NCBI GenBank assembly: GCA_022822275.1
Contig: JAJEBZ010000095.1
Span: forward strand, 14,036 to 78,035
Length of the DNA stretch: 64,000 bases
Direction: 5' to 3'
From: Candidatus Poribacteria bacterium
Lineage (GTDB): Bacteria > Poribacteria > WGA-4E > WGA-3G
Shown: piece by piece, positions 21,211-63,326 of the stretch
How positions within the stretch are numbered: the stretch's first letter is position 1
Layout of the letters: the number at the start of each line of letters is the position of its first letter
Notes under the pieces: generated by a model
What the model was told of the DNA's origin: nothing
Databases searched by the model: none
Seen by the model: the letters and a program-made list of their open reading frames with translations, nothing else
Position numbers and translations under genes: made by a program

Positions 21211-21246
21211 AATTATATGTTTTAGTATAGTAACTCAAACGGAGAT

Positions 21247-22473: not shown

Positions 22474-22534
22474 TAGATATTTCTCTTTGGTAAATAGTTT
22501 TTTTGGACAGAATTGAGTCGGTAAAACGTCAAGG

Positions 22535-35708: not shown

Positions 35709-35709
35709 G

Positions 35710-36180: not shown

Positions 36181-36191
36181 GGCGAATCCTC

Positions 36192-42727: not shown

Positions 42728-42782
42728 TATAAGAGTATTAGCAGAAATCCAGTCGTTGTGTGACTCATTACGGAGGATTCTG

Positions 42783-44975
42783 ATGGAAAAAGATGACGTT
42801 CAATTGATTCATAACATCTTGTCTGGCGACGATGAGGCGTTCGGTACCTTAGTTCAAAAATACCAAAAGAGTGTTCACGCCCTTGCATGGCGAAAGATCG
42901 GCGATTTTCATTATGCTGAAGAAATTACACAAGACACCTTCCTTCAGGCATATAGGAAACTTTCGACACTCAAGGATTACAATCAATTTGCTGGATGGCT
43001 ATATGTCATCGCCGATCGACTTTGCATTGATTGGATACGAAAGCGAAAACCAGTGTCGCAAGCGTTGGGAGACTCGTCTATGAAAGCGATAGATAAGTTA
43101 ACTTATGAACGTTATGTATTAGAACAACGTGAGATAGAAGCGACTGAATATCGCCAAGAAATCGTTAAGCGACTTCTGAAAAAACTACCAGAGAGCGAAC
43201 GCACAGTGGTGACGCTCTACTATCTCGGTGAAATGACGGCAAAAGAAATTGGCAAATTCTTGGGGGTGTCAGTGAACACTATTACGAGCCGACTCAAGCG
43301 AGCACGAGAACGTCTAAAAGCATCAGAAGAACTCTTGATTAACGATACACTTGGCGGTTTGCAATTGTCTACTAACCTAATGGAGAACATCATGCAGCAG
43401 GTTGCTGACATAGAACCGGTACCGTCTCCATCTGGAAAACCTTTTTTCCCATGGGTGGCTTTCAGTGCAGCCACGGTTTTGGTTATATTGCTGCTCGGTG
43501 TGAGTAATCAATATCTTACCAGATTTCAGAAACCGTATAGTTTTGAGGCACAGTCCGAACCCACTATTGAAATTATAGAGGCACTTACTATTCTTGATTC
43601 TGACGCAAAACCGGCTGTGCAAAGTCAAATTGGAAGGGTTGTCGATCTTGATAAAAGTAATAACAACGGATCACGGTCTTCTGAGGAAGCCTCACCACCT
43701 AATGCATCCGAGAACTTCCCTGTAATTACTGCCTCTAATGGTCCGCCTATAGTGACACGATTTACTTTAAGCAACGGTATCCGAGTTGTTAATCTCCATG
43801 TTGAAAACTCCAAGGATGTCGGTATTTTTAGCTATTTACCTCTTGGACTTGTCAATGATGGGAAAGCAAAGGCACAGTGGAGCAATCTAATTATGCGCCT
43901 ATCAGTCCGAACACCAGGACCCATTGACTACAACACAAGTAGTGCGGAGGCAATGGCTGATAATATGCGCTTGGAGTTTCGGGGGAATACGGATACATGG
44001 ACGCAGGGATTGGATCTCCATGCAAAATGGCTTTCTGGACTACCGTTCACAGCAGAAAGTCTCGCCAAAGCACTTCCGAATGCCTTGGCTGAGTTTGGCT
44101 ATCTTGAAAAGAACTTGGCAACGCATAAATTGGCACATGCAGCGTGGAATCAAGTTTTTCGGCATGGTGAAACCGATATAGTGATGCGCGAGGGCATTCG
44201 ATCGGTGCAACTGAGTCAGCTTCAGGAATATCGCGATCAGCATTTGGTCCAAGCAGGCCGCGTCCTTTTGTGTGTCATTGGTGGCGTTGATTCCGAAACG
44301 TTAAAAGATACTATGGAAAAACAACTGGGCACTATCAACTTACATGAGAAGACTCTTCCCCAGCCAACAGTGTCTCCAGATATAGCAAAAGACCAAACGG
44401 TTACTTGGGATATCAATGTAACGCATTATATAGAAGCCTACGCGATTCCTCGTCCTGAAAACGAAGACTATCCCGCACTCTATATCGCAAGTGTGCTTTT
44501 ACGGTTAGCATTCATACAGGATGTCCAATTAAAAAAAATAACAGGTCACGTTTACTGTGGGGTTGACCTCGTCACGCCTGAGCAAGTATACTTTTACATC
44601 AGTGCTTCACTCAAGCCAAACACAGATATAGAAAGAGTTAAGCAGCGGATGCGGCAGCTAATGAACCCCTTAAAGCAATCAGAGAACAACGCTCAGGTTT
44701 CTGTCCTTGCCCAGTCCCTCTCTACAGAACTCAGCGCGCCACCGGGTATGAAAACACTCATGCAGCAAAAACCGGAAAATATAACAGAGACTCACATGCT
44801 CCTCCAACTTGGAGTAAGTTGGGGCATAGTGGAATACCAATATGGTGAAACCATGCCACAACTTGCGAGTGCTTTTGCAGATGTCTCTGCAGATGATGTG
44901 GCAGATGTTGTCAAGAGGTATCTGACCAAAGATGAACGGATGACATTAGTTCTCACACCGCGGGCACATGAATAG
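42783..44975 (+). CDS. ECF sigma factor fused through a transmembrane helix to an extracytoplasmic pseudo-M16 domain.
   Basis: Residues 1-200 carry sigma70 region 2 ('WLYVIADRLCIDWIRKR') and region 4 ('LYYLGEMTAKEIGKFLGVSVNTITSRLKRARERL'). A transmembrane segment 'FPWVAFSAATVLVILLLGV' follows. The C-terminal 430 aa are paralogous to 41423..42727, but the HxxEH site reads 'SNLIMRL', so all three catalytic residues are substituted. The start at 42783 follows a GGAGG RBS. Confidence 0.65.
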   Translation: MEKDDVQLIHNILSGDDEAFGTLVQKYQKSVHALAWRKIGDFHYAEEITQDTFLQAYRKLSTLKDYNQFAGWLYVIADRLCIDWIRKRKPVSQALGDSSMKAIDKLTYERYVLEQREIEATEYRQEIVKRLLKKLPESERTVVTLYYLGEMTAKEIGKFLGVSVNTITSRLKRARERLKASEELLINDTLGGLQLSTNLMENIMQQVADIEPVPSPSGKPFFPWVAFSAATVLVILLLGVSNQYLTRFQKPYSFEAQSEPTIEIIEALTILDSDAKPAVQSQIGRVVDLDKSNNNGSRSSEEASPPNASENFPVITASNGPPIVTRFTLSNGIRVVNLHVENSKDVGIFSYLPLGLVNDGKAKAQWSNLIMRLSVRTPGPIDYNTSSAEAMADNMRLEFRGNTDTWTQGLDLHAKWLSGLPFTAESLAKALPNALAEFGYLEKNLATHKLAHAAWNQVFRHGETDIVMREGIRSVQLSQLQEYRDQHLVQAGRVLLCVIGGVDSETLKDTMEKQLGTINLHEKTLPQPTVSPDIAKDQTVTWDINVTHYIEAYAIPRPENEDYPALYIASVLLRLAFIQDVQLKKITGHVYCGVDLVTPEQVYFYISASLKPNTDIERVKQRMRQLMNPLKQSENNAQVSVLAQSLSTELSAPPGMKTLMQQKPENITETHMLLQLGVSWGIVEYQYGETMPQLASAFADVSADDVADVVKRYLTKDERMTLVLTPRAHE

Positions 44976-47646: not shown

Positions 47647-48681
47647 ATGTCAAACCAAATCATTCAACTCGGAGTAGTGGGATGTGGATGGGCAGGCTGC
47701 CAGGCTATCTATGCTGCCAATGCTACCTCTCGACTAAACGTTATCGCTATTGCAGAACGTGATCCAATCCGCCATGAACAGGCAGGAAACAACTACGCAG
47801 TACCGCATCGCTATGCTGACTATCAAGAACTCCTTGATAATCCGTCCGTTGATGCTGTTTACCTTGCCACTTCTCCAGATGGCAGACTTCAACAGGTATT
47901 GGATACGCTCAATGCAGGCAAACATGTCTTAGTTCAAAAACCGCATGCTATCCGTGCCCCTGAAATTTTAGAGATGGAAACAGCAGCACAACAGGCCGGC
48001 AAAACGCTCCAATTCTGTTATTTTATGCGTCACTTTCCGCACAACCGCCAAATTCGGCGTGCTGTCCTAAATGGGGCAATCGGAGAACCGTTTCATGCCC
48101 GCGTTTTTGGAAAATTCAATTCCATTCCAACCCTTGATGCCAACAGCCGATGGCTGCATGTATATGGACAAAAAGGCGGTTCATTAGGACAACACTATTC
48201 CCATGAACTCAATCTAACGTGGTGGTGGTTGGGATGTCCAAAACCTGAGTGGGCATTTGCATCAAAGCACGTGCTTTATCCACAGTACGATGGACCAGAG
48301 GGAGCAGCAGAGGACTATTTCACAGGTCTCCTCGGTTGTGAAGGTGGAAAAACTATCCAGATCGACTGTTCACGGATGAGTCATTCAGATTCTGGCAGTG
48401 TTGTGGAGCTTTATGGCACTACTGGCGCAATCACGAACGGCGGCATATCAAGATTTAAAGATGGCGAATTTGTCCGAGAAGCAATTGATGAACCTACTGA
48501 GATTGATCATGGGGAACTGCCTGAAGAGGTGCCTGTATTTTACTATGAACTCAATCATTTCGCTATGGCTATTGCAGGTGAAGTAGCACCAGATGTTGAC
48601 GCATCTAATGCTTATACCTTTATGCAGATATTGGATGCGCTTTATGATAGCGCAAAAAGTGACGAAAAGGTTTATATTTGA
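47647..48681 (+). CDS. Gfo/Idh/MocA-family NAD(P)-dependent oxidoreductase.
   Basis: 'LGVVGCGWAGCQAIYAA' is the Rossmann GxGxxG motif. 'EKPHA' is Gfo/Idh/MocA-like. Confidence 0.7.
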   Translation: MSNQIIQLGVVGCGWAGCQAIYAANATSRLNVIAIAERDPIRHEQAGNNYAVPHRYADYQELLDNPSVDAVYLATSPDGRLQQVLDTLNAGKHVLVQKPHAIRAPEILEMETAAQQAGKTLQFCYFMRHFPHNRQIRRAVLNGAIGEPFHARVFGKFNSIPTLDANSRWLHVYGQKGGSLGQHYSHELNLTWWWLGCPKPEWAFASKHVLYPQYDGPEGAAEDYFTGLLGCEGGKTIQIDCSRMSHSDSGSVVELYGTTGAITNGGISRFKDGEFVREAIDEPTEIDHGELPEEVPVFYYELNHFAMAIAGEVAPDVDASNAYTFMQILDALYDSAKSDEKVYI

Positions 48682-48747: not shown

Positions 48748-49785
48748 ATGTATAAAAGTGCGATGTTGGGGTGCGGCGGCCGCGCAGGTGGCCATGCAAG
48801 TGCCTATCGCTTTGTTAAAGGTGGGAAACTCGCAGCGATCTGCGATATGAACGAAGAACGACTCAACAATTTCGGTGATAGATTTGAAATATCTTCTCGA
48901 TATACAGATTTAGACGAGATGCTTGAGAAGGAGAAGCCGGATCTGCTCCATATTGTGACTGCTCCTGTGCTACGCGGATCCAATGAACGGATTCGGTATT
49001 CGCTGATGAAACAGGCATCAGACCATGGTGTACCTGCTGCGATTGTAGAAAAGCCGATTGCAGTTGAAAGCGAAGATTGGAAACAGATTGCTGGGTTAGC
49101 AGAAGAAACCAAAACGAAGTTTGTTGTCAACACACAGTTGAATTTTCATCCCCAGAATCTTGAACTCAAGAGAGACGTGGCGGAAGGCAAAATTGGTGAG
49201 ATTAAGTTCATAGATGCAAGTGCTCGGAGCACGCCAGTGGATCAGGGACCACATGTTCTGCAGTTAGTTTCTTCCTATATTGATAATTCCAGACCTGTGA
49301 GTGTATTAGGACAGGTTTCAGGGAGAGAACATTTGGACTCAGCCCAACCTTCTCCTATGCATGCGGCGGCACAAGTTATTTATGAAAATGGACTTCATGT
49401 CTCTCTGGCATTTGGACAGGGTATGGGAACGATGGCATCCGATAACCAAGGCATTTATTGCCATAAACGCGTCTTTGTCATTGGAACAGAAGGTTTTGTG
49501 CATTGGCGTTTTAGCAGTTGGGAACGTTCTACACAAAAGGGCGGTTATGAAGGCGGTCCACTCAACTATGGTGAACAAGATGTTCAAGCACAAGGCAACC
49601 TCACTGAGGCAGTTTTTGATTGGCTTGATGATGAGAAAAACGAACATCCGACACACCTCAAACAGTCACTTGCAGAATTCAACCTTCTCTTAGGAATGTA
49701 CCACAGCGGTATAACGAATCAAATTATTGACCTTCCGTTTGATCCACCAGATGGGTTAATGGATTCACTAAGAGAGCAACTATAA
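48748..49785 (+). CDS. Gfo/Idh/MocA-like oxidoreductase, tandem paralog 1.
   Basis: 'MLGCGGRAGGHASAY...IVEKPIAVE' fits the family. It is about 80-85% identical at the protein level to the next two genes. Confidence 0.6.
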   Translation: MYKSAMLGCGGRAGGHASAYRFVKGGKLAAICDMNEERLNNFGDRFEISSRYTDLDEMLEKEKPDLLHIVTAPVLRGSNERIRYSLMKQASDHGVPAAIVEKPIAVESEDWKQIAGLAEETKTKFVVNTQLNFHPQNLELKRDVAEGKIGEIKFIDASARSTPVDQGPHVLQLVSSYIDNSRPVSVLGQVSGREHLDSAQPSPMHAAAQVIYENGLHVSLAFGQGMGTMASDNQGIYCHKRVFVIGTEGFVHWRFSSWERSTQKGGYEGGPLNYGEQDVQAQGNLTEAVFDWLDDEKNEHPTHLKQSLAEFNLLLGMYHSGITNQIIDLPFDPPDGLMDSLREQL

Positions 49786-49913
49786 ATCGGTTTTAGGTTT
49801 TTTTATGTAACGATTAGCGATAGCAGTGAATATGTTTGCTACTACCGCTAATTGTTATATACTGCAGAACATTGCTGTGTTCGTAGTACATAAATGTATA
49901 AGGGATTACTGTT

Positions 49914-50951
49914 ATGTATAAAAGTGCGATTTTAGGATGCGGAGGACGTGCCAAAGGTCATGCAGGTGCTTATCGGTTTGTTAAAGGTGGTCAACTCGCA
50001 GCGATCTGCGATATGAATGAAGAACGGCTCAATAATTTTGGTGATAGATTTGAGATTTCATCTCGGTATACAGATTTAGACGGGATGCTTGAGAAGGAAA
50101 AACCGGATCTCCTCCATATTGTCACTGCTCCGCTATTACGCGGTACGAACCAGCACATTCGGTATCCGTTAATGAAGCAAGCCTCAGACCACGGTGTACC
50201 TGCAGTAATTGTAGAAAAACCGATTGCTGTTGATAGCGATGACTGGAAGCAAATAGCTGGATTAGCAGAAGAAACAGAAACAAAATTTATTGTCAACACG
50301 CAACTCAACTTTCACCCCAAAAACCTTGAACTCAAAAAAGATGTCGTAGATGGTAGAATTGGTGAACTTAAGTTCATTGATGCCAGTGCACGCAGTACAC
50401 CTGTAAATCAAGGGCCACACGTACTTCAATTAGTATCTTCTTACGTTGATAACTCTCGCCCTGAGAAAGTCCTTGGGCAAATCTCTGGAAGAGAGAGTTT
50501 GGATTCAGCAGAACCTTCACCAATGCATGCTGCAGCACAGGTTCTATATGATAATGGGTTACATGTCTCCATTGCTTTTGGACCGGAAATGGGGGCGAAA
50601 GTATCAGAAAGACCTGCAAGATTTAGACATAAACGTGTCTTTGTTGTTGGAACGAAAGGTTTTGTACATTGGGGTTTTAGCATGTGGGAACGTTCTACAC
50701 TTGAAAGTGGTTACGAAAGCGGTCCACTCAACTACGGCGATCAAGATGTTCAAGCACAAGGAAACCTTACGGAGGCAGTTTTTGATTGGCTTGATGATGA
50801 GAGTAAAGAACATCCGACACATCTCAAACAATCGCTGGCAGAGTTCAACCTCCTTTTGGGAATTTACTACAGTGGTATTACGAATGAGATTATTGACCTT
50901 CCGTTTGAACCCCCTGACAGCTTAATTGATTTACTTAAGGAAAAATTATAA
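49914..50951 (+). CDS. Gfo/Idh/MocA-like oxidoreductase, tandem paralog 2.
   Basis: It is 345 aa and co-linear with paralogs 1 and 3. Confidence 0.6.
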   Translation: MYKSAILGCGGRAKGHAGAYRFVKGGQLAAICDMNEERLNNFGDRFEISSRYTDLDGMLEKEKPDLLHIVTAPLLRGTNQHIRYPLMKQASDHGVPAVIVEKPIAVDSDDWKQIAGLAEETETKFIVNTQLNFHPKNLELKKDVVDGRIGELKFIDASARSTPVNQGPHVLQLVSSYVDNSRPEKVLGQISGRESLDSAEPSPMHAAAQVLYDNGLHVSIAFGPEMGAKVSERPARFRHKRVFVVGTKGFVHWGFSMWERSTLESGYESGPLNYGDQDVQAQGNLTEAVFDWLDDESKEHPTHLKQSLAEFNLLLGIYYSGITNEIIDLPFEPPDSLIDLLKEKL

Positions 50952-51088
50952 ATTCAGTCTCTAATTTGTCAGATAGAAAGTTTAACGGTAGATGCAAACA
51001 TATATTCAATTCTGCTAAATAAGTATGAATTGTAAACTTGCGAATAATAGTATTGTAATGATAATAATAAGTATAAGGAGATAATTTT

Positions 51089-52126
51089 ATGTATAAGAGT
51101 GCATTTTTAGGTTGTGGTGGTCGTGCCCGCGCACATGCAAGCGCGTACCGCTTTGTCAAAGGTGGGAAAATCGGAGCGATCTGTGACATGAACGAAGACC
51201 TTCTAAACAGTTTCGGTGAACAATTTGATGTCTCTTCCCGATATACAGATTTAGATGAAATGCTTGAAAAGGAGAAACCCGACCTACTCCACATTGTAAC
51301 TGCACCTGTGTTACGTGGAACCAATCAACGTATCCGTTATCCATTGATGAAGCAAGCCTCTGATCATGGCGTACCGATGGCAATTGTAGAGAAACCGATC
51401 GCTGTTGAAAGCGAAGACTGGAAAGAGATCGCTGGATTAGCAGAGGAGACAAAAACAAGGTTTATTGTCAACACACAACTAAACTTTCACCCAAAAAACC
51501 TTGAATTAAAACAGGATGTAGCAGAAGGTAAAATTGGTGAAATTAAGTTTATTGATGCCAGTGCCCGGAGTACACCTGTTGACCAAGCCCCACATGTGCT
51601 GCAGTTGGTATCGTCTTACATAGACAATTCACGTCCGGTGCGAGTGTTAGGGCAAATTGCTGGAAAAGAGCAGTTGGATTCAGCACAGCCGTCTCCGATG
51701 CACGCTGCGGGGCAGGCAATATACGAAAACGGTCTCCATGTTTCTCTCGCATTTGGAACAGGAATGGGAACTTTGGCATCAGAACGTGGGGGCAATACCG
51801 CACATAAACGCGTTTTTGTTGTCGGTACTGATGGATTTGTACACTGGCGATTCAGTAGTTGGGAACGGTCAACACGAGAGGGCGGTTACGAAGGTGGGCC
51901 GCTTAATTATGGTGAACAGGATATCCAAGCACAGGGCAATCTGACTGAGGCAGCTTTTGAATGGCTTGATGATGAGAAAAACGAACATCCGACACATCTT
52001 AAACAATCGCTTGCTGAGTTTAACTTGCTTTTAGGTATTTACTACAGTGGCATAACTAACCAGATTATAGATCTACCGTTCGACCCACCAGACGGGTTAA
52101 TGGATAGTCTTAGAGAGCAACTGTAA
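51089..52126 (+). CDS. Gfo/Idh/MocA-like oxidoreductase, tandem paralog 3.
   Basis: It is 345 aa and co-linear with paralogs 1 and 2. Confidence 0.6.
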   Translation: MYKSAFLGCGGRARAHASAYRFVKGGKIGAICDMNEDLLNSFGEQFDVSSRYTDLDEMLEKEKPDLLHIVTAPVLRGTNQRIRYPLMKQASDHGVPMAIVEKPIAVESEDWKEIAGLAEETKTRFIVNTQLNFHPKNLELKQDVAEGKIGEIKFIDASARSTPVDQAPHVLQLVSSYIDNSRPVRVLGQIAGKEQLDSAQPSPMHAAGQAIYENGLHVSLAFGTGMGTLASERGGNTAHKRVFVVGTDGFVHWRFSSWERSTREGGYEGGPLNYGEQDIQAQGNLTEAAFEWLDDEKNEHPTHLKQSLAEFNLLLGIYYSGITNQIIDLPFDPPDGLMDSLREQL

Positions 52127-52321: not shown

Positions 52322-54991
52322 GTGAACTTTCAAATTAGAAACAGGTTTTTGTTCTTCATGTTTACGCTGTCTATGTGTCTAAATTCTATTTTCCTAATGA
52401 ACACTGCTGCACAAGTCGGTGATGAACCTGTTGGCATATCTGCCAACTATACTTATGAGACGATTGATGTTCCGGGTGTAGACTTTTTAGCGGTGACAGC
52501 AAGTAGCGACTTTGAGGACTACGCCGGCAACACCCCAAGTGCCGATGGTGAAAAAATGGTCGCCTTTACGCTCATTGATGGTGTTTTTGAGACCCACGAT
52601 TTCCCCGGCTCGAAAAACACCTATTTCTACGCACTCGGTAACAATGGACTCGCTGCGGGGCACTACGAGGATAGCAAAGGTCTTTTCCACGGTGTCATCT
52701 TAGAGAATGGTGAGTTGCGGCAATACGATTTTCCAGGTGCCGTCCAAACGGAGATCTATGGATATAGCGATTCAACCGGGGTACTGACGGGTAATTTTAT
52801 AGATGCTTCCGGTGTTCGCCGTGGATTCTCAGGAGATGAAATAATTGAGTATCCCGGGGCAACGGAAACTTATGCCGATTTTGTGAGCACGCTTGGCAAT
52901 GTCGTGGGCAGCTATGTAGATACTGAAGACACATATCATGCATACCTGCGTGGCCCAGGAGGTAGCTTTGCAACGCTTGACCTTCCACTCAAAGGAGAGT
53001 TGGACTACTTTTTTCTCCACGGTATTAACAGTGCCCTGATTGCCGTCGGCCGAGCCAAAACCGTGGGTGATGTCCCACGCACCTATGCCGGCAACCCCGT
53101 AGCCTTACAAGAACTGAAGTTTCCGGGCAGCGTCAGCACGGAAGGTTGGAATGTTAATCAGGACAACTCTATCGTGGGACATTATGACTCTGCGGATGGA
53201 CGTAGACACGGGTTTATCGCCAGACCGAAAGAGGGTACTCCACAAGCACGACCCGGTGTTGTACCTCCTAACCTCAACTATACTTTTGAGAGTATTAATG
53301 TGCCTGGTGTAGATTTTTTAGCGGTAACTGCCAGTAGTGACTTTGAAGATTACGCCGGCAACATGCGGACTGCTGATGATGAAAAAGATGTTGCCTTTAC
53401 ACTCATTGATGGCGTTTTTACGACTTATGATTTCCCCGACTCGCAGGGCACCTATTTCTATGCACTCGGGAACGATGGAAAAGCTGCCGGACACTACCAA
53501 GATAGTGATGGACTGTACCACGGTGTTATCTTAGAGAATGGCGAATTGCGGCGATACGATTTTCCAGGTGCCGTTCAAACAGAGATATACGGTCTTAGTG
53601 ATGCGACGGGGGCTCTAACGGGTAGTTATATAGATGCTTCTGGTGTTCGCCGCGGGTTCTCTGGGGATACAATAGTCGAAAAATCCGGGGCATCCGCAAC
53701 TTATGCCGATTTTGTGAGCTGGACAGGCCATATCGTGGGTAGCTATGTGGATGCTGAAGGGGTATATCATGCATACATGCGTAGTTCGGTGGGTAGATTT
53801 CTATCTATTGACCTTCCAAACGCAACAAATCTGGAATACTTTTTTCTCCACGGCCTCAACAATGCAAGGGCTGTCGTTGGTCGAGCCAAAGCGGCGGGTG
53901 ATGTCCCACGTACTTATGTCGGCAGCCCCCTCAACCTGCAGGAATTGCAGTTCCCGGGTGCTGTTAGCACGGAGGGCTGGAATATTAATCAGGATGGCTC
54001 CGTCGTCGGACACTACGACTCAGCGGATGGACGCAGACACGGATTTGTCGCCAGACTCGTCGCCAAGGAAGAGAGTGATCATTTTGGAAACATCTTCAAC
54101 GTTACGCTAACGAAAGGTTTAAACATGCTTTCTTTGCCTTTAGCATCACCAAAACCGATGACCGCAAAATCACTTGCGGGGATTACTGGCGCGACAGTTG
54201 TTATAGCACTTGACGCTGAAAATCAACGGTTCATTGGTTGGACACCAGATGCACCTAACGATGGATTTCCCATTGATGGCGGACAAGGATATATCGTCAA
54301 TGTACCACAAACACGCAATTTTGCCTTCGTTGGATCACGCTGGACAAATCAAACGGAGATTGCTGCAGCACCACCTGCTATATCCCAGACAAAGGAAACA
54401 TGGGCTTTCGTGGTAAGTGGACACTTACATGGCAAACCAACGTTTGACGGTTACAAAGTCATCGTCCGCAACCTGAGAACAAAAAGTACCATAACTACCT
54501 CGGTGCAAGGTGATTACTTCGCTGCTGCAACTGCTGACTTAGCAAGACGAAGTGTTGTCAAAGTTGGAGATGTGATTGAAGCACGCGTCATCGGACCGGA
54601 CGGTAACGTTGAATCCCAAACCCTCAATATTAAAGTGACCCCTGAGAACTTGGCTAATGCACTATTATCTGTCAAGTTTGATAGCATCGGTAAACCGCTG
54701 CAGAACAAGTTGTTGCAAAACTATCCGAATCCATTTAACCCTGAGACGTGGATTCCATATCAACTCGCGCAAGACAGTTCTGTATCGGTATCCATTTATG
54801 ATTCAACCGGTAAGGTGATACGTAAACTATCAATTGGTAATCAATCTGCAGGTTTCTATAATAGTCGGGAACGTGCTGCTTATTGGGATGGCAAGAATGC
54901 TTTAGGAGAAAGTGTTGCGAGTGGTGTCTATTTTTACCAGTTGACAACACCCTCCTTCCAGCAAACACGGCGGCTCGTCATTCTAAAGTAG
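52322..54991 (+). CDS. Giant secreted repeat protein with a T9SS-type C-terminal sorting domain, paralog 1.
   Basis: It has a GTG start and a signal peptide. Two tandem modules of about 280 aa are built from '(D/Y)FPGA.QTEIYG.SD.TG.LTG...GVRRGF' and 'SVSTEGWNINQDGS.VGHYDSADGRRHGF' units. The C-terminus 'LLQNYPNPFNPETWIPYQL...SIYD..GK.IR.L..G....G.Y...R.A.YWDG.N..GE.VASGVYFYQLTTP' is a type-A Por/T9SS sorting tail. Confidence 0.7.
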   Translation: MNFQIRNRFLFFMFTLSMCLNSIFLMNTAAQVGDEPVGISANYTYETIDVPGVDFLAVTASSDFEDYAGNTPSADGEKMVAFTLIDGVFETHDFPGSKNTYFYALGNNGLAAGHYEDSKGLFHGVILENGELRQYDFPGAVQTEIYGYSDSTGVLTGNFIDASGVRRGFSGDEIIEYPGATETYADFVSTLGNVVGSYVDTEDTYHAYLRGPGGSFATLDLPLKGELDYFFLHGINSALIAVGRAKTVGDVPRTYAGNPVALQELKFPGSVSTEGWNVNQDNSIVGHYDSADGRRHGFIARPKEGTPQARPGVVPPNLNYTFESINVPGVDFLAVTASSDFEDYAGNMRTADDEKDVAFTLIDGVFTTYDFPDSQGTYFYALGNDGKAAGHYQDSDGLYHGVILENGELRRYDFPGAVQTEIYGLSDATGALTGSYIDASGVRRGFSGDTIVEKSGASATYADFVSWTGHIVGSYVDAEGVYHAYMRSSVGRFLSIDLPNATNLEYFFLHGLNNARAVVGRAKAAGDVPRTYVGSPLNLQELQFPGAVSTEGWNINQDGSVVGHYDSADGRRHGFVARLVAKEESDHFGNIFNVTLTKGLNMLSLPLASPKPMTAKSLAGITGATVVIALDAENQRFIGWTPDAPNDGFPIDGGQGYIVNVPQTRNFAFVGSRWTNQTEIAAAPPAISQTKETWAFVVSGHLHGKPTFDGYKVIVRNLRTKSTITTSVQGDYFAAATADLARRSVVKVGDVIEARVIGPDGNVESQTLNIKVTPENLANALLSVKFDSIGKPLQNKLLQNYPNPFNPETWIPYQLAQDSSVSVSIYDSTGKVIRKLSIGNQSAGFYNSRERAAYWDGKNALGESVASGVYFYQLTTPSFQQTRRLVILK

Positions 54992-55015
54992 AGTCAACCC
55001 ATATCAAACTAACAA

Positions 55016-55050
55016 GTGTCACAGTTGCGCCATCGGTGTAACTGTGACAC
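55016..55050 (+). terminator. Conserved stem-loop downstream of repeat-protein paralog 1.
   Basis: The stem 'GTGTCACAGTT' pairs with 'AACTGTGACAC' across a 13-nt loop. Near-identical hairpins follow paralog 2 (58526-58559) and paralog 3 (61346-61382). There is no clear U-tract. Confidence 0.4.
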
Positions 55051-55836
55051 CGTTAAGTCTAAGAATCCATTTAATACAAATTTAACGAGTTGTGCTAAAT
55101 AACTAATGGCAATAATATCATTCACATAAGAAGGATTAATTTTCGTTATTTCACTTATGTTGACACCTTCTTTAGTCCCGTAGGCAGAGGCATTCAATCC
55201 TGTAAGAATACATTCCAACAATAGATTTCCAATAGATTGGACATGATTTCTATTGTTCTCAAAACAAAAAACACAACAAACCCACACCACTATCAGGTAT
55301 AATATAACCCGGACACCCAAATAGAATCCAAACTTTTGGTCTTGCTCAAAAAAGGATCACTAAAATGACCGATAGACAAATCAAAAAACACAAAACAAAA
55401 AACGATAAAAAACCCATTTAGTTGTTTTTTTCAAAATTTCGCAAATTCATAAAACCTTCATAAACCCATACCATAACACGATCGAGAACACTTATGAAAA
55501 AAATGCAAAAAACACGAAAAAAACAACTAAAATATTCCACGATTAGGACAAGGTTCACAACCAGATGCATTCAATTGTCGATTAATCACACACGCTAACA
55601 TTATGATTCTTCTGTAGTTCGGGAAAATCACGAAAATAGGTGAAATTTTTCTTGCGTTTTTCTGGAAAATGTTACATAATTTTAAAAATACTAAAAAGAA
55701 AAGAAACCGAATTTTCAATTTAATCACATGTCTGAACACAAACTTGCCAAGTCTTAACTATAAACATCATCTCTCAAGATAAGTTATCCAATATAGATTC
55801 TTGATCCTTGAAGGAAAACTAAGGAGAAATTTCATT

Positions 55837-58500
55837 ATGCAAAATCATTTTAAAAACAGTTTCTTAATTTTTATGTCTTTGTTGTGCTTCAATTCATTTT
55901 TTCTAACCAACACTGTTGCACAAGTTAACATTGAGACCGCCAGTGACAACTATACTTTTGAGACAATTGATGTTCCGGGAGTAGATTTTTTATCACTGAC
56001 AGCAAGTAGTGACTTTGGGGATTACGCAGGCTACACCAAAAGTGTTGACGGTGAAAAGGATGTCGCGTTCACGCTCATTGATGGCGTTTTTACGACTTAT
56101 GATTTCCCTGAATCCCAAAACACCTATTTCTTTGCACTTGGTAATAACGGGAATGCTGCCGGACACTACGAGGATAGTGAAGGGCTTTTTCATGGAATCG
56201 TATTAGAAAATGGTGAATTACGACAATACGATTTTCCTGGTGCAGTCCAAACTGAGATATACGGTATTAGCGATTCTACAGGCGCACTGACAGGCAATTA
56301 TATAGATGCCGCTGGGATTCGTCGTGGATTCTCAGGTGACGAAATCATTGAGTACCCCGGAGCACAGGAAACTTATGCCGATTTCGTGAATTCAAGTGGG
56401 GGTATGGTGGGGAGCTACGTAGATGCTGAAGGACTATATCATCCATACATACGTACCCCAGCAGGCAGATTTGTATCTCTTGACCTTGCAGATGCAGCAT
56501 TCTTGGAATACTTTTTTGTGCACGGTATCAACGATGCAAGGGTCATCGTTGCACGAACTAAATGGGTGGATATTCCCCCGGGCACTCTTGTCGGCACGTT
56601 TCAGGATGGACTAAAGATACTTGAGGTTCCGGGCAGCGTAAGCACAGAAGGTTGGAATATCAACCAGGACGGCTCTATCGTTGGACACTATGATACAGAA
56701 GATGGTCTCAGACACGGGTTTATAGCAAGACCGGCTGCACAAGTTCCCGAGCCACCTGTTGCCACACCCACCGAATTTAACTTTACCTTTGAGAGTATCA
56801 ATGTTCCGGGTGTAGATTTTTTAGCGTTGACTGCAAGTAGCGACTTTGAGGATTACGCAGGTTACACACTGAGTACTGATGGTACAAAAGAAGTTGCGTT
56901 TACCTTAATTGATGGTGAATTTAAAAGGTATGATTTCCCCGGTTCACAGAAAACGCATTTCTACGCACTCGATAATAATGGAAATGCTGCTGGACACTAC
57001 CTGGATAGCGATGGAAATTATCACGGTGTCGTTTTGGAGAATGGAGAACTGCGCCAATATGATTTCCCAGGTGCCGTTCAAACAGAGATATACGGTATCA
57101 GTGATGCCACCGGGGCACTGACTGGGAATTATATTGACGCTACCGGTGTTCGACGTGGATTCTCAGGAGACGAAATCGTGGAAGCCCCCGAGGCATCTGC
57201 AACTTATGCCGATTTTGTAAACGCAAGTGGCCGTCTGGTGGGTAGTTATGTGGATGCTGATGGGATATATCATCCTTATGTACTGAACCCCGAAGCCAGG
57301 TTTATATCTATTGAATTGCCACGAGCAGCAACATTTGAATTCTTTTTTGTGCACGGTATCAACGATGTAGGGACGCTTGTAGGCAGAACTAAAAGGTTTG
57401 GAGATGTCGTGCGCACCACTGTCGGCACATTCCAGCACGGACTACAGGAATTGCGGGTTCCAGGCAGCGTTAGCACGGAGGGTTGGAATATCAATCAAGA
57501 CGGCTCTGTCGTCGGATACTACGACTCAGCAGATGGACGTAGGCACGGGTTTATCGCAAGGTCTGTGTCAAAGGCAATCAGTGACTTTTTTAGCAACAGT
57601 TACAACGTCAAACTCACAAAAGGTTTGAATATGCTTTCTGTCCCATTGGCACCACCAACACCGATGAATGCGAAGAGCCTCGTCGCTATGACAGGGGCAA
57701 CAACGATTATCAGACTTGACGCTGCAAACCAGCGTTTTGTCGGCTGGACTCCAAGTGCCCCTGACGAAGGTTTTCAAATTGAAGGTGGACAAGGTTATAT
57801 CGTCAATGTTCCCCAAGATCGAGATTTTGCTTTCGTTGGATCACGGTGGAATGAACATAGTGGGAGCGCAGCAGCACCTGCAATAGCCAAAGTGGGATCA
57901 CCAAATGTATGGGCATTCGTTGTCAGTGGAAACTTAGACGGCATCCAGGCTGCCAACGGTTACACCGTCAAAGTCCGAAACCTACGGACAAACACTGTCA
58001 TGACATCTCAGGTACGCAGTAATTACTTCGCTGCAGCCACAGCAGATCTCAATTATCGCAGTGTTGTTGGGGCAGGTGACAAACTTGAAATAACCGTTAC
58101 TGATACGAATGGAAATATTGTGTCAGAAAAATTCAATTTCACGGTAAATGCAACACATCTTGAGAATGCTGTTATGAATGTGAAACTTGACGATATCGGT
58201 TCCCCGAAACGGAGCCAACTTCTGCAGAATTATCCGAACCCGTTTAACCCTGAAACATGGATACCTTATCATCTTGCAGAAGCAGGGGTTGTGCCCCTAT
58301 CTATTTATGACGCTGCAGGTAAACTTGTCCGAACATTTTCGCTTGGGCACAAACCAGCAGGTTTCTACCAGAATCGGGGGAACGCTGTTTATTGGAACGG
58401 ACGAAACGCGTCAGGTGAAGCAGTTGCAAGCGGTGTCTATTTCTATCAACTGACAACACCAACATTCCAGCAGACACGACGACTCGTCATTTTAAAGTAG
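55837..58500 (+). CDS. Giant secreted repeat protein with a T9SS-type C-terminal domain, paralog 2.
   Basis: It has the same architecture as paralog 1. The start at 55837 follows an AAGGAG RBS. The longer ORF begins at 55801. Confidence 0.7.
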   Translation: MQNHFKNSFLIFMSLLCFNSFFLTNTVAQVNIETASDNYTFETIDVPGVDFLSLTASSDFGDYAGYTKSVDGEKDVAFTLIDGVFTTYDFPESQNTYFFALGNNGNAAGHYEDSEGLFHGIVLENGELRQYDFPGAVQTEIYGISDSTGALTGNYIDAAGIRRGFSGDEIIEYPGAQETYADFVNSSGGMVGSYVDAEGLYHPYIRTPAGRFVSLDLADAAFLEYFFVHGINDARVIVARTKWVDIPPGTLVGTFQDGLKILEVPGSVSTEGWNINQDGSIVGHYDTEDGLRHGFIARPAAQVPEPPVATPTEFNFTFESINVPGVDFLALTASSDFEDYAGYTLSTDGTKEVAFTLIDGEFKRYDFPGSQKTHFYALDNNGNAAGHYLDSDGNYHGVVLENGELRQYDFPGAVQTEIYGISDATGALTGNYIDATGVRRGFSGDEIVEAPEASATYADFVNASGRLVGSYVDADGIYHPYVLNPEARFISIELPRAATFEFFFVHGINDVGTLVGRTKRFGDVVRTTVGTFQHGLQELRVPGSVSTEGWNINQDGSVVGYYDSADGRRHGFIARSVSKAISDFFSNSYNVKLTKGLNMLSVPLAPPTPMNAKSLVAMTGATTIIRLDAANQRFVGWTPSAPDEGFQIEGGQGYIVNVPQDRDFAFVGSRWNEHSGSAAAPAIAKVGSPNVWAFVVSGNLDGIQAANGYTVKVRNLRTNTVMTSQVRSNYFAAATADLNYRSVVGAGDKLEITVTDTNGNIVSEKFNFTVNATHLENAVMNVKLDDIGSPKRSQLLQNYPNPFNPETWIPYHLAEAGVVPLSIYDAAGKLVRTFSLGHKPAGFYQNRGNAVYWNGRNASGEAVASGVYFYQLTTPTFQQTRRLVILK

Positions 58501-58667
58501 GGGCAATCCGTATAGAATGCACAAGTGTCACAGTTATGCTGTCGGTGTAACTGTGACACTCCTTAAGCACAAAAAACACAAAAAAACAAAAATGTTTGAA
58601 AACTCCATTAAAACGTTCAAAATTCATTAGTAGGAACTTAGATTCCCTTAAAGTAAGGTTTTTTATT

Positions 58668-61325
58668 ATGCATACTGACATTAAAACTAATTTTTTATGT
58701 TACACGTTTACACTGTTCATGTGTCTCAATTCCTTTTTCCTAATCAATACCAATGCCCAAACCGATAATGCCCCAACGCCTTCAGACCCTGAATTCACCT
58801 ACACTTATGAGAGTATTGATGTCCCAGGTGTAGATTTTTTAGCGTTGACTGCAAGTAGCGACTTTGAGGATTACGCAGGTTACACGAAAAGTGCTGATGA
58901 CAAAAAAGATGTTGCCTTTACGTTGATTGATGGTGTTTTTACGACTTATGATTTTCCGGGTTCAAAGAACACTTATTTCTACGCCCTCGGCAACAATGGA
59001 CAAGCGGCGGGACATTACGAGGACAGCAACGGTCTATACCACGGGGTCGTCTTGAATGAAAATGGCGAACTGAGCCAGTATGATTTTCCGGGTGCTGTTC
59101 AAACGGAGATATACGGTATCAGTGATGCAACCGGGGCACTAACAGGGAATTTCACGGACGCTCAGGGGGTGCGTCGTGGGTTCACAGGGGACACTATCAT
59201 TGAGGTGCCCGGTGCCTCGGAGACCTTCGCCGACTTTGTATCTGAAGGACGGCTCGTCGGCAGCTACATCGATACGGACGGACTCTATCACACTTACGTG
59301 TTTACCCCGGATGGCGAGTATCGGTCTGTTGACATCCCAAACGCCGCACAGATCGAATTCGTTCTTGTGCACGGTATCAACAAGGCGGGTGTCTACGTTA
59401 CCCGCTCCAAACTGGTCGGTGATGTCACGCGTACCCATGTCAGCACATTCCGCGGGCGAGTGGAATTACAATTTCCGGAGAGCATTAGCACGGAAGGTTG
59501 GAACATCAATCAGGACGGCTCTGTCGTAGGGTACTACGACAGAGCCGATGGACGCAGATGCGGGTTCATCGCCAGACCCGTTGGGGCACTTGCTCTACAA
59601 CCGACCTTCTCTAACTATACGTTTGAGAGTATTGATGTGCCAGGGATAGAGTTTTTAGCGTTGACGGCGAGCAGCGACTTTGAGGATTACGCCGGCTACA
59701 CGAAAAGTACTGAGGGTCAAAAGATGGTCGCCTTTACGCTCATTGACGGCGTTTTTACGACCTACGCTTTCCCCAACGCAGAGAACACCTATTTCTACGC
59801 GCTCAGTAATGATGGTCGCGCTGCCGGACATTACCAAGACAGTGAGGGGTTCTATCACGGCGTTATCTTGGAAAAGGGGGTGCTTATGCAATACGATTTC
59901 CCCGGTGCTGTTGAAACGAAGATATATGGGATTTCTGATGAAACAGGCGCGCTGACAGGGAATTTCACGGACGCTCAGGGGGTGCGTCGTGGGTTCACCG
60001 GTGATACCGTCATTGAAGTCCCTGGTGCCTCGGAGACCTTCGCGGACTTTGTGGCTGCGGGCCGACTCGTGGGGAGTTACGTCGATGCTGACGGGCTTTA
60101 TCACGGATACATACATACGCACGGCCAATTTACATTTATCGACTTGGCAGATGTCAAAAACCTTGAATACTATTTTTTCCACGCGATCAACACTGCGGGG
60201 ATTTTCGTTGCCCGTTCCAAACGGATCGATGATGTCCCGCGCACCTATATCGGCTCAGCACGTGGACGTTCTGAATTACAGGTGCCAGGCAGCGTTATCA
60301 CAGAGGGTTGGAATATCAATCAGGACGGCTCTATCGTCGGACACTACGACTCAGCGGATGGACGTAGACACGGATTTATCGCAAGGCCGGTTACCAAAGC
60401 AGAAAGCGGGCATTTTGGCAACATCTTCAACGTCACGCTGACGAAAGGTTTAAACATGCTTTCTCTGCCTTTAGCATCACCAAAACCGATGACAGCAAAA
60501 TCACTTGCTGGGATATCTGGTGCGACTGTTGTAATTGCACTTGATGCTGCAAATCAACGTTTCGTAGGTTGGACACCAAGCGCGCCAAACGATGGATTCC
60601 CGATTGAAGGTGGAAAAGGCTATATCGTCAATGTCCCACAGGATCGCAACTTTGCATTCGTCGGGGCACGCTGGACAAATCAAACAGAGGCAGCAGCTGC
60701 ACCCACCATATCCACGAAGATGCCGCAAGACGCGTGGGCGTTCGTTGTCAGTGGGCATTTAGAAGGTAAACCAACGTTTGATGACTACAAGGTCATCGTC
60801 CATAACATGAGAACAAATACCACAATAACAGCCTCGGTGCGAGATAATTACTTCGCTGCTGCAACTGCCGACTTAGCACGGCGCAGCGTTGTCAAAGTTG
60901 GAGACATCGTTGAATTGCACGTTATCGGTCCGGACGGTAACGTTGAATCACAAACCCGCAGCTTTAAAGTAACCCCTGAGCACATGGCAAACGCGGTGTT
61001 GTCTGTCAATCTTGATAGCATTGGTGAACCGACGCAGGATCAGTTATTGCAGAACTATCCGAATCCATTTAACCCTGAGACGTGGATTCCGTATCAACTC
61101 GCGCAAGACAGTTCTGTATCGGTATCCATTTATGATTCTACCGGTAAGCTGATACGCACACTTTCACTCGGTTTACAATCTGCAGGCTATTACAATAATC
61201 GGGAACGTGCTGCATATTGGGATGGGCGTAATGCTCTGGGGGAACGCGTTGCAAGCGGTGTCTATTTCTATCAACTGACAACGCCAACATTCCAGCAGAC
61301 ACGGCGACTCGTCATTTTAAAGTAG
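58668..61325 (+). CDS. Giant secreted repeat protein with a T9SS-type C-terminal domain, paralog 3.
   Basis: It has the same architecture as paralogs 1 and 2. The likely start at 58668 (MHTDIKTNFL...) precedes a signal peptide. The longer ORF begins at 58596. Confidence 0.65.
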   Translation: MHTDIKTNFLCYTFTLFMCLNSFFLINTNAQTDNAPTPSDPEFTYTYESIDVPGVDFLALTASSDFEDYAGYTKSADDKKDVAFTLIDGVFTTYDFPGSKNTYFYALGNNGQAAGHYEDSNGLYHGVVLNENGELSQYDFPGAVQTEIYGISDATGALTGNFTDAQGVRRGFTGDTIIEVPGASETFADFVSEGRLVGSYIDTDGLYHTYVFTPDGEYRSVDIPNAAQIEFVLVHGINKAGVYVTRSKLVGDVTRTHVSTFRGRVELQFPESISTEGWNINQDGSVVGYYDRADGRRCGFIARPVGALALQPTFSNYTFESIDVPGIEFLALTASSDFEDYAGYTKSTEGQKMVAFTLIDGVFTTYAFPNAENTYFYALSNDGRAAGHYQDSEGFYHGVILEKGVLMQYDFPGAVETKIYGISDETGALTGNFTDAQGVRRGFTGDTVIEVPGASETFADFVAAGRLVGSYVDADGLYHGYIHTHGQFTFIDLADVKNLEYYFFHAINTAGIFVARSKRIDDVPRTYIGSARGRSELQVPGSVITEGWNINQDGSIVGHYDSADGRRHGFIARPVTKAESGHFGNIFNVTLTKGLNMLSLPLASPKPMTAKSLAGISGATVVIALDAANQRFVGWTPSAPNDGFPIEGGKGYIVNVPQDRNFAFVGARWTNQTEAAAAPTISTKMPQDAWAFVVSGHLEGKPTFDDYKVIVHNMRTNTTITASVRDNYFAAATADLARRSVVKVGDIVELHVIGPDGNVESQTRSFKVTPEHMANAVLSVNLDSIGEPTQDQLLQNYPNPFNPETWIPYQLAQDSSVSVSIYDSTGKLIRTLSLGLQSAGYYNNRERAAYWDGRNALGERVASGVYFYQLTTPTFQQTRRLVILK

Positions 61326-61408
61326 AGTCCGTATAGAATGCACAAGTGTGACAGTTATGCTATCGGTGTATAACTGTCACACGCCGTTAAACCAAAAAAA
61401 GGATAATC

Positions 61409-63223
61409 ATGGATCATAAAATAAAAACGAAACTTCCCTTGTTGATATGTCTAATTATCTGTTTCATAGGATATGCAGTCGCACAAGTTAATGCTGAAAC
61501 ACCGATTGCAGATTACATCTTTGAAACGATTGAAGTGCCGGGTGTAGATTTTCTGGAGGTGGCTGCAAGTAACGACTTCGGAGACTACGCAGGCAATACC
61601 CGTAACATTGATGGCACAAAAACCATCGGATTCACATTGATTGACGGTGTTTTTAAAACTTATGACTTCCCAGGATCCCTAAATACCTATTTCTATGCCC
61701 TTGATAATGCCGGAAAAGCTGCAGGACATTACAAAGGACAAGATGAACTTTATCACGGTGTTATCATGGAAAATGGAGAACTCACGCAATACGATTTTCC
61801 CGGCGCAGCCCAAACTCTCATCTACGGTATTAGTGATGAAACGGGAGCACTGAGCGGTAATGTCGTTGATGAAGCAGGTGTCAGCCGCGCCTTCTCAGGG
61901 GAGTTGTCATTTATGTTCCCCGGAGCAGTAGCAACTTATGGGGACTTTGTCAACGCCGCAGGTGCTGTCGTCGGCAGCTACAGGGATGCCGACGGGATCC
62001 CCCATGGATTCATACGTCACCCAGACGGCAGTTTCACCACTATAGACCTCCCAGAAATGCCGAATCTTGAATTTCTATTTGTGAACACCATCACTGATGC
62101 CGGTGTTATAGGCTTCAGAGCCAAAGCTGCAAACGATATTCTGCGGTCCTATATCCTTCTGCCCAGTGGTATCCTCCATGAAGTGCGACTCCCAGGCAGT
62201 GTTATCACTGTCGTCCGAAATGTTAATCAGGATGGAAGTATTATCGGTTATTACGACACAACGGACGGGCGGAGATACGGATTCATCGGTAGCCCTAACA
62301 CACAACCAAACGGAGAAGATTACGGCAGGACTTTCTCCATGCACCTCTCTAAAGGTTTGAATATGCTGTCTGTGCCGTTGAAACCGACTGTCCACATGAC
62401 AGCCCGGTCGCTTGCTGTAAAGACAGGCGCGACAGTTGTAATAGCACTCAATGCTGCCAATCAACGTTTTATAGGTTGGACACCGAGTGCACCCGACAAC
62501 GGATTTCCCATAGAAGGTGCTAAAGGGTACATCGTCAATTTACCAAGGGCACGCGACGTTGTCTTCACTGGGGTGGGATGGACAAATCAAGCAGCACCAA
62601 CTTCAACGCCAATCGCAATGCCACGCGAAACGTGGGCATTTGTCGTGAGTGGGCAGTTGGCAGGTAAACAGAAGTTTGACGGCTATCAAATTACAGTTCA
62701 AAACTTGCGGAAAAACACCATTATGACAGCACAAGTGCGTAATAATTACTTCGCTGCTGCCACAGCAGACCTCAGCTATCGCAGTGTTGTTGAAGCAGGT
62801 GACAAAATAGAAATAACCGTTACTGATACAAGTGGAAATGTTGTGTCGGAAAAATTCAATTTCACGGTAAATGCGACACATCTTGAAAACGCTGTAATGA
62901 ATGTGAAACTTGACGGTATCGGTTCCCCGAAACGGAGCCAACTTCTGCAGAATTATCCGAACCCGTTTAACCCTGAAACATGGATTCCGTATCATCTTGC
63001 AGAAGCGGGGGTTGTGTCCCTATCTATTTATGACGCTGCAGGTAAACTTGTCCGAACATTTTCGCTTGGACACAAACCGGCAGGTTTCTATCAGAATCGA
63101 GAGAACGCTGTTTATTGGGACGGACGAAATGCGTTGGGAGAGACAGTTGCAAGCGGTGTCTATTTCTATCAACTGACAACGCCAACATTCCATCAGACCA
63201 AACGGATGATCATTCTGAAATAA
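61409..63223 (+). CDS. Secreted repeat protein with a T9SS-type C-terminal domain, paralog 4 (single-module version).
   Basis: At 604 aa it has one N-terminal module instead of two. The central and C-terminal domains match the other three paralogs. Confidence 0.7.
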   Translation: MDHKIKTKLPLLICLIICFIGYAVAQVNAETPIADYIFETIEVPGVDFLEVAASNDFGDYAGNTRNIDGTKTIGFTLIDGVFKTYDFPGSLNTYFYALDNAGKAAGHYKGQDELYHGVIMENGELTQYDFPGAAQTLIYGISDETGALSGNVVDEAGVSRAFSGELSFMFPGAVATYGDFVNAAGAVVGSYRDADGIPHGFIRHPDGSFTTIDLPEMPNLEFLFVNTITDAGVIGFRAKAANDILRSYILLPSGILHEVRLPGSVITVVRNVNQDGSIIGYYDTTDGRRYGFIGSPNTQPNGEDYGRTFSMHLSKGLNMLSVPLKPTVHMTARSLAVKTGATVVIALNAANQRFIGWTPSAPDNGFPIEGAKGYIVNLPRARDVVFTGVGWTNQAAPTSTPIAMPRETWAFVVSGQLAGKQKFDGYQITVQNLRKNTIMTAQVRNNYFAAATADLSYRSVVEAGDKIEITVTDTSGNVVSEKFNFTVNATHLENAVMNVKLDGIGSPKRSQLLQNYPNPFNPETWIPYHLAEAGVVSLSIYDAAGKLVRTFSLGHKPAGFYQNRENAVYWDGRNALGETVASGVYFYQLTTPTFHQTKRMIILK

Positions 63224-63265
63224 CGTAAATTCAAATTGTTTGTTGAAATAATCTTTCTTCTGTAG

Positions 63266-63293
63266 CCGGGGAATGCTATAGAGCATTCCCCGG
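63266..63293. terminator. Bidirectional terminator-like hairpin between repeat-protein paralog 4 (+) and rsgA (-).
   Basis: The stem 'CCGGGGAATGCT' pairs with 'AGCATTCCCCGG' (12-bp perfect stem) across the loop 'ATAG'. Confidence 0.5.
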
Positions 63294-63326
63294 GCCGCTT
63301 CTACAAGAACACATCAGTAAATGGCA

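Follow-up and report, generated by a model that had tools for sequence, protein, structure and literature searches.

Tandem propeller proteins with type IX secretion-like tails in a Candidatus Poribacteria contig

Positions 52322-63223 of a 64-kb window of Candidatus Poribacteria DNA (the whole stretch analyzed, in whose positions all coordinates are given) are occupied by four co-oriented open reading frames (ORFs) on the + strand, referred to here as G1 to G4 in order of position. The proteins they encode are uncharacterized additions to a known class, in which repeat or propeller passengers carry tails like those of type A cargo of a type IX secretion system (T9SS); proteins combining such a tail with repeats or propellers are already annotated as such in related genomes by the NCBI annotation pipeline. 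On balance, we favor the view that G1 to G4 are old paralogues within a family that is specific to Poribacteria and whose members are exported binding proteins. Poribacteria are dominant, uncultured symbionts of sponges, and the repeat proteins that they secrete rank as prime candidates for a part in host interaction. The sole potentially important point raised by the array is the export pathway that operates in these bacteria.

The four genes, their propellers, and their tails

The ORF calls agree with an original prediction, made from the sequence alone, that placed four co-oriented genes here. Their starts and predicted parts are as follows.

52322-54991, + strand: G1, 889 amino acids (aa), start at GTG 52322 with a GAGG motif upstream; propeller a 52445-53224, propeller b 53276-54055, two beta-sandwich stalk domains 54056-54706, C-terminal domain 54707-54988
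55837-58500, + strand: G2, 887 aa from ATG 55837 (ORF 55801-58500, opening with TTG 55801), AAGGAG 9 nt 5' of the ATG; propeller a 55948-56730, propeller b 56779-57561, stalk 57562-58215, C-terminal domain 58216-58497
58668-61325, + strand: G3, 885 aa from ATG 58668 (ORF 58596-61325, opening with TTG 58596); propeller a 58797-59576, propeller b 59613-60386, stalk 60387-61040, C-terminal domain 61041-61322
61409-63223, + strand: G4, 604 aa, start at ATG 61409; single propeller 61511-62293 (blades at aa 33-79, 80-122, 123-164, 165-207, 208-254, and 255-298), stalk domains mid1 at about aa 308-390 and mid2 at about aa 410-502, C-terminal domain 62939-63220

The starts of G2 and G3 were placed at the first in-frame ATG because a Shine-Dalgarno-like motif lies upstream and because the choice agrees with the N termini of homologues. 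The lengths first given for G1 and G4 stand, and those for G2 and G3 (888 and 886 aa) each come down by one residue; at 604 to 889 aa, the proteins are not the giants they had been called. G2 is identical to the database protein P0003 (887 aa) and G4 to P0001. Among themselves, the four proteins are about 65-71% identical; the BLASTP values are 70.5% (G1/G3), 66% (G1/G2), and 64% (G2/G4, over the last 595 aa).

What makes up the N-terminal part of these proteins? A hidden Markov model of the module finds two full 260-aa copies each in G1, G2, and G3 and one in G4, exactly the numbers anticipated. The repeated module is thus real, at about 260 aa, or about 285 aa with its linker, in place of the roughly 280 aa first estimated. 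The extra N-terminal ~285 aa of G1 to G3 match the single module of G4 with 50 to 55% identity and E values of about 1e-91 to 1e-101, which at the level of sequence is far above chance. The G4 module aligns as six units of 42 to 47 aa, ~43 aa per blade, with the pattern x-F-x-x-x-D-F-P-G...T...G-I-S/N-D-x-G...G-x-Y...G...H-G-F, bearing out the ~45-residue units and the motif originally reported. In an AlphaFold model of G4 built with 95 family sequences, residues 31 to 300 (per-residue confidence, pLDDT, about 90) contain 24 strands forming six four-strand units arranged in a ring, a predicted six-bladed beta-propeller; the order of the strands suggests that an N-terminal strand completes the last blade (a "velcro" closure). 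When the G4 model was compared with the PDB by Foldseek, the best match was the six-bladed Pizza6 (TM-score normalized to the target, TMt, 0.66), and further matches, six- or seven-bladed, were Brat NHL, TolB, Photorhabdus PLL/PHL, and Aleuria lectins, with PorZ at a low TM-score. The model and the Foldseek matches thus uphold the suggestion that the module is a beta-propeller.

The guess that the repeats are of HAF type also held up. On the HAF repeat model TIGR02913 (cutoff 22.65 bits), G1, G2, and G4 score 30.6, 32.3, and 27.3 bits, and G3 falls below the cutoff at 9.8. A phmmer search of the full library with the G4 propeller returned 14,432 clusters at E<=1e-3, among them named HAF extracellular repeat proteins, and 97 clusters at E<=1e-30. 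The propeller matches P0144 at E 2.4e-43; P0144 itself scores 135 bits on TIGR02913, and its cluster contains a member named "probable HAF family extracellular repeat protein." The distant relatives of the propeller are HAF repeat proteins; named members of their clusters come from Xanthobacteraceae and Pedosphaera. A sequence search of the PDB gave no match for the propeller and only weak FlgD matches for the tail. Blades 1 to 3 and 6 are conserved (entropy 0.6-0.8 bits) and blades 4 and 5 variable (1.1-1.4 bits), and the conserved residues, PG, S/N-D-x-x-G, and H-G-F, recur in each blade. A comparison of conservation on the top and bottom faces of the propeller showed no clear difference; only blades 4 and 5 vary.

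The C-terminal half, modeled separately (pLDDT 81.6), is predicted to comprise a beta domain of ~85 aa that includes one helix, a sandwich of seven strands, a linker with little order, and the sandwich of the tail. Foldseek places it near strings of Ig-like domains, as they occur in adhesins, pilins, and S-layer proteins, and near FlgD, PorU, and PorZ.

The predicted Por/T9SS type A C-terminal domain is present in all four proteins, which pass TIGR04183 (cutoff 23 bits) with 38.0 (G1), 39.8 (G2), 36.2 (G3), and 42.0 bits (G4), the match stopping 2 residues short of the stop codon. On Pfam Por_Secre_tail (PF18962, cutoff 27), G1 (27.7), G2 (28.8), and G4 (30.2) pass and G3 (26.1) lies just under; all four pass Pfam FlgD_ig (cutoff 27) with 37-45 bits. 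AlphaFold renders the tail as a beta-sandwich of 7-8 strands (pLDDT 77-92), which Foldseek matches to FlgD, PorZ, and PorU, and both this fold and the extreme C terminus, RRLVILK, agree with type A tails. The lowest variability in the whole protein is found in the segment LLQNYPNPFNPETWIPY (entropy 0.49 bits, with many invariant columns). Two identities suggested by these matches were rejected: PorZ (NF052228), at 16-22 bits against a cutoff of 260, and PorU (NF033707), at 29-33 bits against a cutoff of 420, the match being confined to the tail in both cases.

All named homologues are from Candidatus Poribacteria, and >2000 database proteins match. Of 422 retrieved relatives, those that bear the tail group by their number of full modules, and the classes of 1, 2, 3, and 4 modules have median lengths of 605, 893, 1175, and 1454 aa. 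The same stalk and tail accompany the whole copy-number series, which includes P0380-P0417 at ~1170 aa and P0316-P0368 at ~1450 aa; P0315, at 1640 aa, possibly has five propellers, and P0123, a close relative of 1126 aa, has an N-terminal spondin domain followed by two propellers and the tail. In a scan of genome contigs with G4, whose matches were dominated by the tail motif, full family members were found only in L001 and L002. L001, a closed poribacterial chromosome (OY761015.1; another is OZ240209.1), carries a similar array, with module numbers of 2, 2, 1, and 1, that is broken up by two unrelated genes, and L002 carries one 2-module gene; the flanking genes show no synteny between the window and either of these.

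Export route and function

If G1 to G4 are exported binding proteins, a Sec-type signal peptide, as read from the sequence, would carry them over the inner membrane, and the C-terminal beta-sandwich, of the T9SS type A class, would direct them across or onto the outer membrane. Cleavage of the tail and attachment to the cell surface would follow, by analogy with Bacteroidota. In the predicted structure, two beta-sandwich stalk domains would hold one or two six-bladed HAF-type propellers off the cell, where they may bind a glycan or protein ligand, with the variable blades 4 and 5 perhaps tuning specificity while blades 1 to 3 and 6 stay conserved. Purifying selection would keep the array, and conversion between genes and between the modules of one gene would partly homogenize it.

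The tail is not private to the family. Tails 54 to 63% identical to it also end unrelated poribacterial passengers, namely WD40/LDL-receptor propellers, FG-GAP proteins, LRR/dockerin proteins, and cohesin-bearing proteins, and unrelated passengers with a common tail point to one shared recognition system. TIG/invasin proteins of poribacterial loci end in more divergent tails. Beyond Poribacteria, most loci with the tail motif in the genome scan belong to named lineages assigned to the Fibrobacterota-Chlorobiota-Bacteroidota (FCB) group (Zixibacteria, KSB1, Ignavibacteria, Calditrichia, Cloacimonadota, Gemmatimonadota, Marinimicrobia, and Bacteroidota), and several others are unclassified or otherwise labeled. 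Dockerin/cohesin-domain proteins occur in several poribacterial loci (L002:1773-3674, L002:7196-9715, L002:14213-16468, L005:3-1949, and L007:8684-10312), and some of them also have a T9SS-like tail, which hints at cohesin-dockerin assemblies on the export route of the tail.

The propeller, for its part, is portable: it is found in 1 to possibly 5 copies, and it turns up beside a spondin domain or as part of a TonB-dependent receptor. This portability, together with the scaffolds and lectins among its fold neighbors, fits a binding module rather than an enzyme. The receptor is a poribacterial protein of 947 aa (P0128/P0311; L201:10001-12844) with a HAF-type propeller, 58% identical to that of G4, as its N-terminal extension; relatives 75% identical to it have a CarbopepD_reg domain in place of the propeller. 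Its gene lies on a 2.06-Mb contig that also holds L002, and its neighbors (MerC, ABC, MacB/FtsX, and DUF3299) give no clear clue to a ligand. An adhesin or host-interaction role, as originally suggested, may be inferred from the tail but not from the propeller, because the receptor fusion puts the propeller at a normally periplasmic position.

Several points weigh against the reading of G1 to G4 as exported binding proteins. (i) The signal peptides are putative ones, recognized by eye; a basic N-region, 15-20 hydrophobic residues in a row, and an A-Q site occur in the four proteins and in the family consensus. (ii) No ligand, enzyme motif (Pfam, NCBIfam), or functionally informative neighbor was found. 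(iii) In the receptor fusion, the propeller is N-terminal to the plug, a position that is periplasmic in known receptors, so the module is not intrinsically a surface module. (iv) A search of the 64-kb window for T9SS components found none. (v) According to Kamke et al. 2014 (PMC3909097), who reported TIGR04183 tails on many poribacterial repeat proteins from single-cell genomes, Por structural genes were "not found" in those genomes and the pathway "remains to be revealed." (vi) Among 31 large tail-bearing proteins screened for PorU and PorZ, neither was present, the best E values (2.8e-16 and 4.9e-6) being consistent with a match to the tail only; this is a small sample, 30 proteins from a metagenome scan for NPFNPETWIPY and one from the poribacterial locus L009, and its taxonomy is not established. 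In the window, the five intact FGE-sulfatase paralogues were considered as GldK/PorK and rejected, at 102-134 bits against a cutoff of 350.

How else might such a tail be used? It is possible, if unlikely, that Poribacteria are without a T9SS and that the tail is read by a different, undescribed export or anchoring pathway, or is a structural Ig-like (FlgD-type) domain of periplasmic proteins. The Por genes missing from the single-cell genomes and the PorU- and PorZ-free sample would fit this explanation, as would the higher scores on FlgD_ig than on Por_Secre_tail, the presence of the same propeller on a presumably periplasmic part of a TonB-dependent receptor, and the placement of Poribacteria outside the FCB group in the NCBI taxonomy. 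The literature search, too, gave no paper linking a T9SS to Poribacteria; that of Kamke et al. was the only relevant one, and no later paper among those searched addresses the export question. However, the genomes available in 2014 were incomplete, and models then in use had been tuned to Bacteroidota. The tail is also the most conserved segment and common to unrelated passengers, as a true sorting signal would be, the identical motif is found mainly in FCB-group phyla, and the RRLVILK end and beta-sandwich fold fit type A tails. A bolder version, which seems to us a shade more doubtful, is that Poribacteria truly lack a canonical T9SS and that the NYPNPFNPETWIPY...RRLVILK domain serves as sorting signal for export or anchoring at the outer membrane by a pathway not yet described, with the array as typical cargo. 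This C-terminal domain is very abundant and very conserved, occurring on the array family and on WD40, FG-GAP, LRR, and cohesin-bearing proteins.

We retain the reading of G1 to G4 as exported binding proteins with a T9SS type A-class tail. Either way, the array sharpens a question left open in 2014, namely how Por-tailed proteins are exported in a phylum that yielded no Por/T9SS genes. Since then, closed poribacterial chromosomes have become available, and the T9SS question is open to simple computation.

Could the propellers instead be exported enzymes, for example, lactonase-, sialidase-, or mutarotase-like proteins that process glycans of the sponge matrix? Many six-bladed propellers are enzymes, the window is rich in glycan-degrading genes (GH95, a sulfatase, the FGE-sulfatase array, and Laminin_G_3 proteins), and one Foldseek match is an arabinanase. 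We nonetheless consider this improbable: no enzyme family appears in Pfam or NCBIfam even at E<=1, the sequence search gave no solved relative, the conserved residues repeat in every blade, as is typical of structural repeat motifs and not of a single active site, and the closest folds are scaffolds and lectins. As a large (>2000 relatives retrieved), strongly conserved family with no known ligand, these candidate exported binding proteins are a reasonable target for structural and binding work.

Age, selection, and gene conversion

As judged by comparison of the genes and their relatives, the array is old, under purifying selection, and reshaped by conversion. The nearest relatives of each paralogue lie in other metagenome assemblies and not in the array, with module identities of 92-94% for G1, 88-97% for G2, 87-89% for G3, and 94% for G4. 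Among the paralogues, synonymous divergence (dS) is 1.1-1.7 and the ratio of nonsynonymous to synonymous divergence (dN/dS) about 0.13-0.20; therefore, the duplications are ancient, and purifying selection acts on the genes. Position does not separate modules a from modules b, mean identities being 73.7% for a-a, 75.1% for b-b, 72.3% for a-b between proteins, and 75.9% for a-b within a protein; therefore, the order of duplication has been blurred by homogenization. The single-module class is equidistant from modules a (59.8%) and b (59.7%). The original prediction had taken the array as a record of stepwise domain and gene amplification, a reading that is not borne out, as shown by the high dS, by the closer relatives elsewhere (87-97%), by the lack of positional sorting among homogenized modules, by the existence of 1- to 4-module forms as established classes, and by the comparable 2+2+1+1 array on a closed chromosome.

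Homogenization within a gene may be seen, for example, in G3, where local tracts of modules a and b share 81-88% nucleotide identity and G3 is 60-69% identical to the other genes over the same stretches. We read these tracts as patchy within-gene homogenization, with independent duplications as the alternative. The clearest recent event, on sequence evidence, is a gene conversion between G2 and G4 at their 3' ends.

58000-58480, + strand: gene-conversion tract, G2 side, covering mid2 and the C-terminal domain
62723-63203, + strand: the same tract, G4 side, counterpart of the G2 side

Over this tract of about 480 bp, nucleotide identity is 90-97%, against about 55-65% upstream, and in 30-nt windows, 26-30 positions are identical inside and 11-21 upstream; dS between the two genes is 0.35 inside the tract and 2.4 upstream. 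The L001 counterpart is 82% identical to G4 in the propeller and 67% in the C-terminal domain, where G2 and G4 share 90%. The stalk and tail of G1 and G3 are 80-92% identical.

The notion of a recently amplified, rapidly diversifying contingency locus, which the tandem co-oriented paralogues with their common spacers and hairpins, the variable blades 4 and 5, and the differing module numbers might encourage, is very improbable and largely refuted by the dS and dN/dS values, by the 87-97% identical relatives of each paralogue in other assemblies, by the wide distribution of every copy-number class, and by the conversion tract being the only young sequence.

Spacers, neighboring genes, and known systems

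The spacers 3' of G1, G2, and G3 are homologous, and each has a stem-loop of 15-17 bp about 25 nt past the stop codon, with arms GTGTCACAGTTA...TAACTGTGACAC. These and the other noncoding features of the array are the following.

55014-55052, + strand: stem-loop after G1, inverted repeat; RNA fold -28.6 kcal/mol, z -6.5
58523-58561, + strand: stem-loop after G2, aligned copy; -24.4 kcal/mol, z -4.2
61344-61384, + strand: stem-loop after G3, aligned copy; -23.9 kcal/mol, z -5.3
54992-55836: spacer between G1 and G2, 845 bp, A+T-rich (GC about 0.39)
63264-63298: G+C-rich hairpin between the convergent G4 and rsgA; -27.4 kcal/mol, z -6.0

In the copy after G3, a C-to-G change on one arm is paired with a G-to-C change on the other, and the stem is kept. 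The arm sequence has six matches in the window, all at the three post-gene sites, and the stem-loop was not found in the other loci fetched. No U-run follows the stem on its 3' side; candidate roles are a terminator, an RNA stabilizer, or a protein-binding palindrome. The hairpin at 63264-63298 differs from these stem-loops and is probably a two-way terminator. The long spacer between G1 and G2 contains poly-A-rich direct repeats and several short inverted repeats, has no credible ORF or Rfam family, is not similar to any fetched locus, and shares only the hairpin with the spacer after G2; the promoter of G2 is presumably located in it. Scans for promoter and terminator consensus sequences did no better than on shuffled sequence.

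Directly 5' of G1 on the + strand, at 48748-52126, lie three tandem 345-aa paralogues of GFO/IDH/MocA oxidoreductases, 79-87% identical, with a fourth, distant copy at 47647-48681; from these identities, their amplification looks younger than that of the propeller array. A tandem array of FGE-sulfatase-domain genes occupies 14147-23836 on the - strand, with five intact paralogues and one split (19662-20201 / 20262-21035). It is broken by a DUF2971 gene (18220-18972), which has a 60-bit match to PDC-S31, a candidate defense family in PADLOC. Also on the - strand, at 33733-38561, are type IV CRISPR-Cas effector genes: Csf2/Cas7 at 34746-35765 (PADLOC 163 bits, E 2.6e-48), Csf3/Cas5 at 33733-34749 (60 bits), and a weak Cas11 at 35710-36180. 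A 789-aa ORF at 36192-38561, without a match in Pfam, NCBIfam, or PADLOC, may be the type IV large subunit. The flanking sequence, searched to about 2-3 kb each way, showed no CRISPR array, and Tandem Repeats Finder detected none. Elsewhere in the window are a DDE transposase (5788-7104), a type II DNA methyltransferase (10763-11743; PADLOC 425 bits) next to which no restriction enzyme was identified, and a 739-aa ORF (42756-44975) in which an ECF sigma factor and an inactive M16 peptidase domain are joined and which may be two genes or a start-codon artifact.

How do the array proteins compare with known systems? The poribacterial "eukaryote-like" repeat proteins of Kamke et al. 2014 come from the same phylum, bear the same tail, and have propeller or repeat passengers (WD40, FG-GAP, LRR, TIG); the HAF-type propeller family and its 1- to 4-module series go unmentioned in the passages of that paper (PMC3909097) that were available. 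A further difference from other tail-bearing repeat proteins is the pair of stalk domains, which is confined to the array family among the loci searched.

The HAF proteins (TIGR02913) resemble the array proteins in being secreted, putatively so for the array proteins, and in their ~40-aa repeats with the pattern G-x-N/S-D-x-G...H-(A/G)-F. However, only one or two repeats in each array protein reach the HAF model, the array modules are six-bladed whereas HAF proteins have about seven matched stretches, and the array proteins end in a T9SS-type tail. A PEP-CTERM anchor is typical of HAF proteins. A sequence search found no solved HAF structure, and the literature search gave no function, only one incidental mention of a "HAF repeat." The propeller scaffolds and lectins (Pizza6/PknD-type, NHL, TolB, Photorhabdus PLL/PHL, and Aleuria AAL), several of which bind sugar or protein, share the fold and the blade size, but at 11-15% sequence identity no binding-site residues can be transferred.

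PorZ of Porphyromonas gingivalis (PDB 5m11) likewise has two beta-propellers followed by a T9SS C-terminal domain and is matched by Foldseek (E 5e-6 when the full model is the query, 3e-3 when the C-terminal half is, TM-score about 0.2), although its propellers are unrelated in sequence to those of the array. The T9SS type A cargo of Bacteroidota (TIGR04183/PF18962), such as the gingipains of P. gingivalis, shares with G1 to G4 an N-terminal signal peptide, in the array proteins a putative one, a C-terminal beta-sandwich of ~90 aa that passes the model, a terminal hydrophobic-Lys ending, and passengers that are binding or enzymatic modules. The differences are the host phylum, Poribacteria, for which PMC3909097 reports no T9SS core, and the tail of the array proteins, which is of the FlgD_ig-like "NYPNPFNP" subtype.

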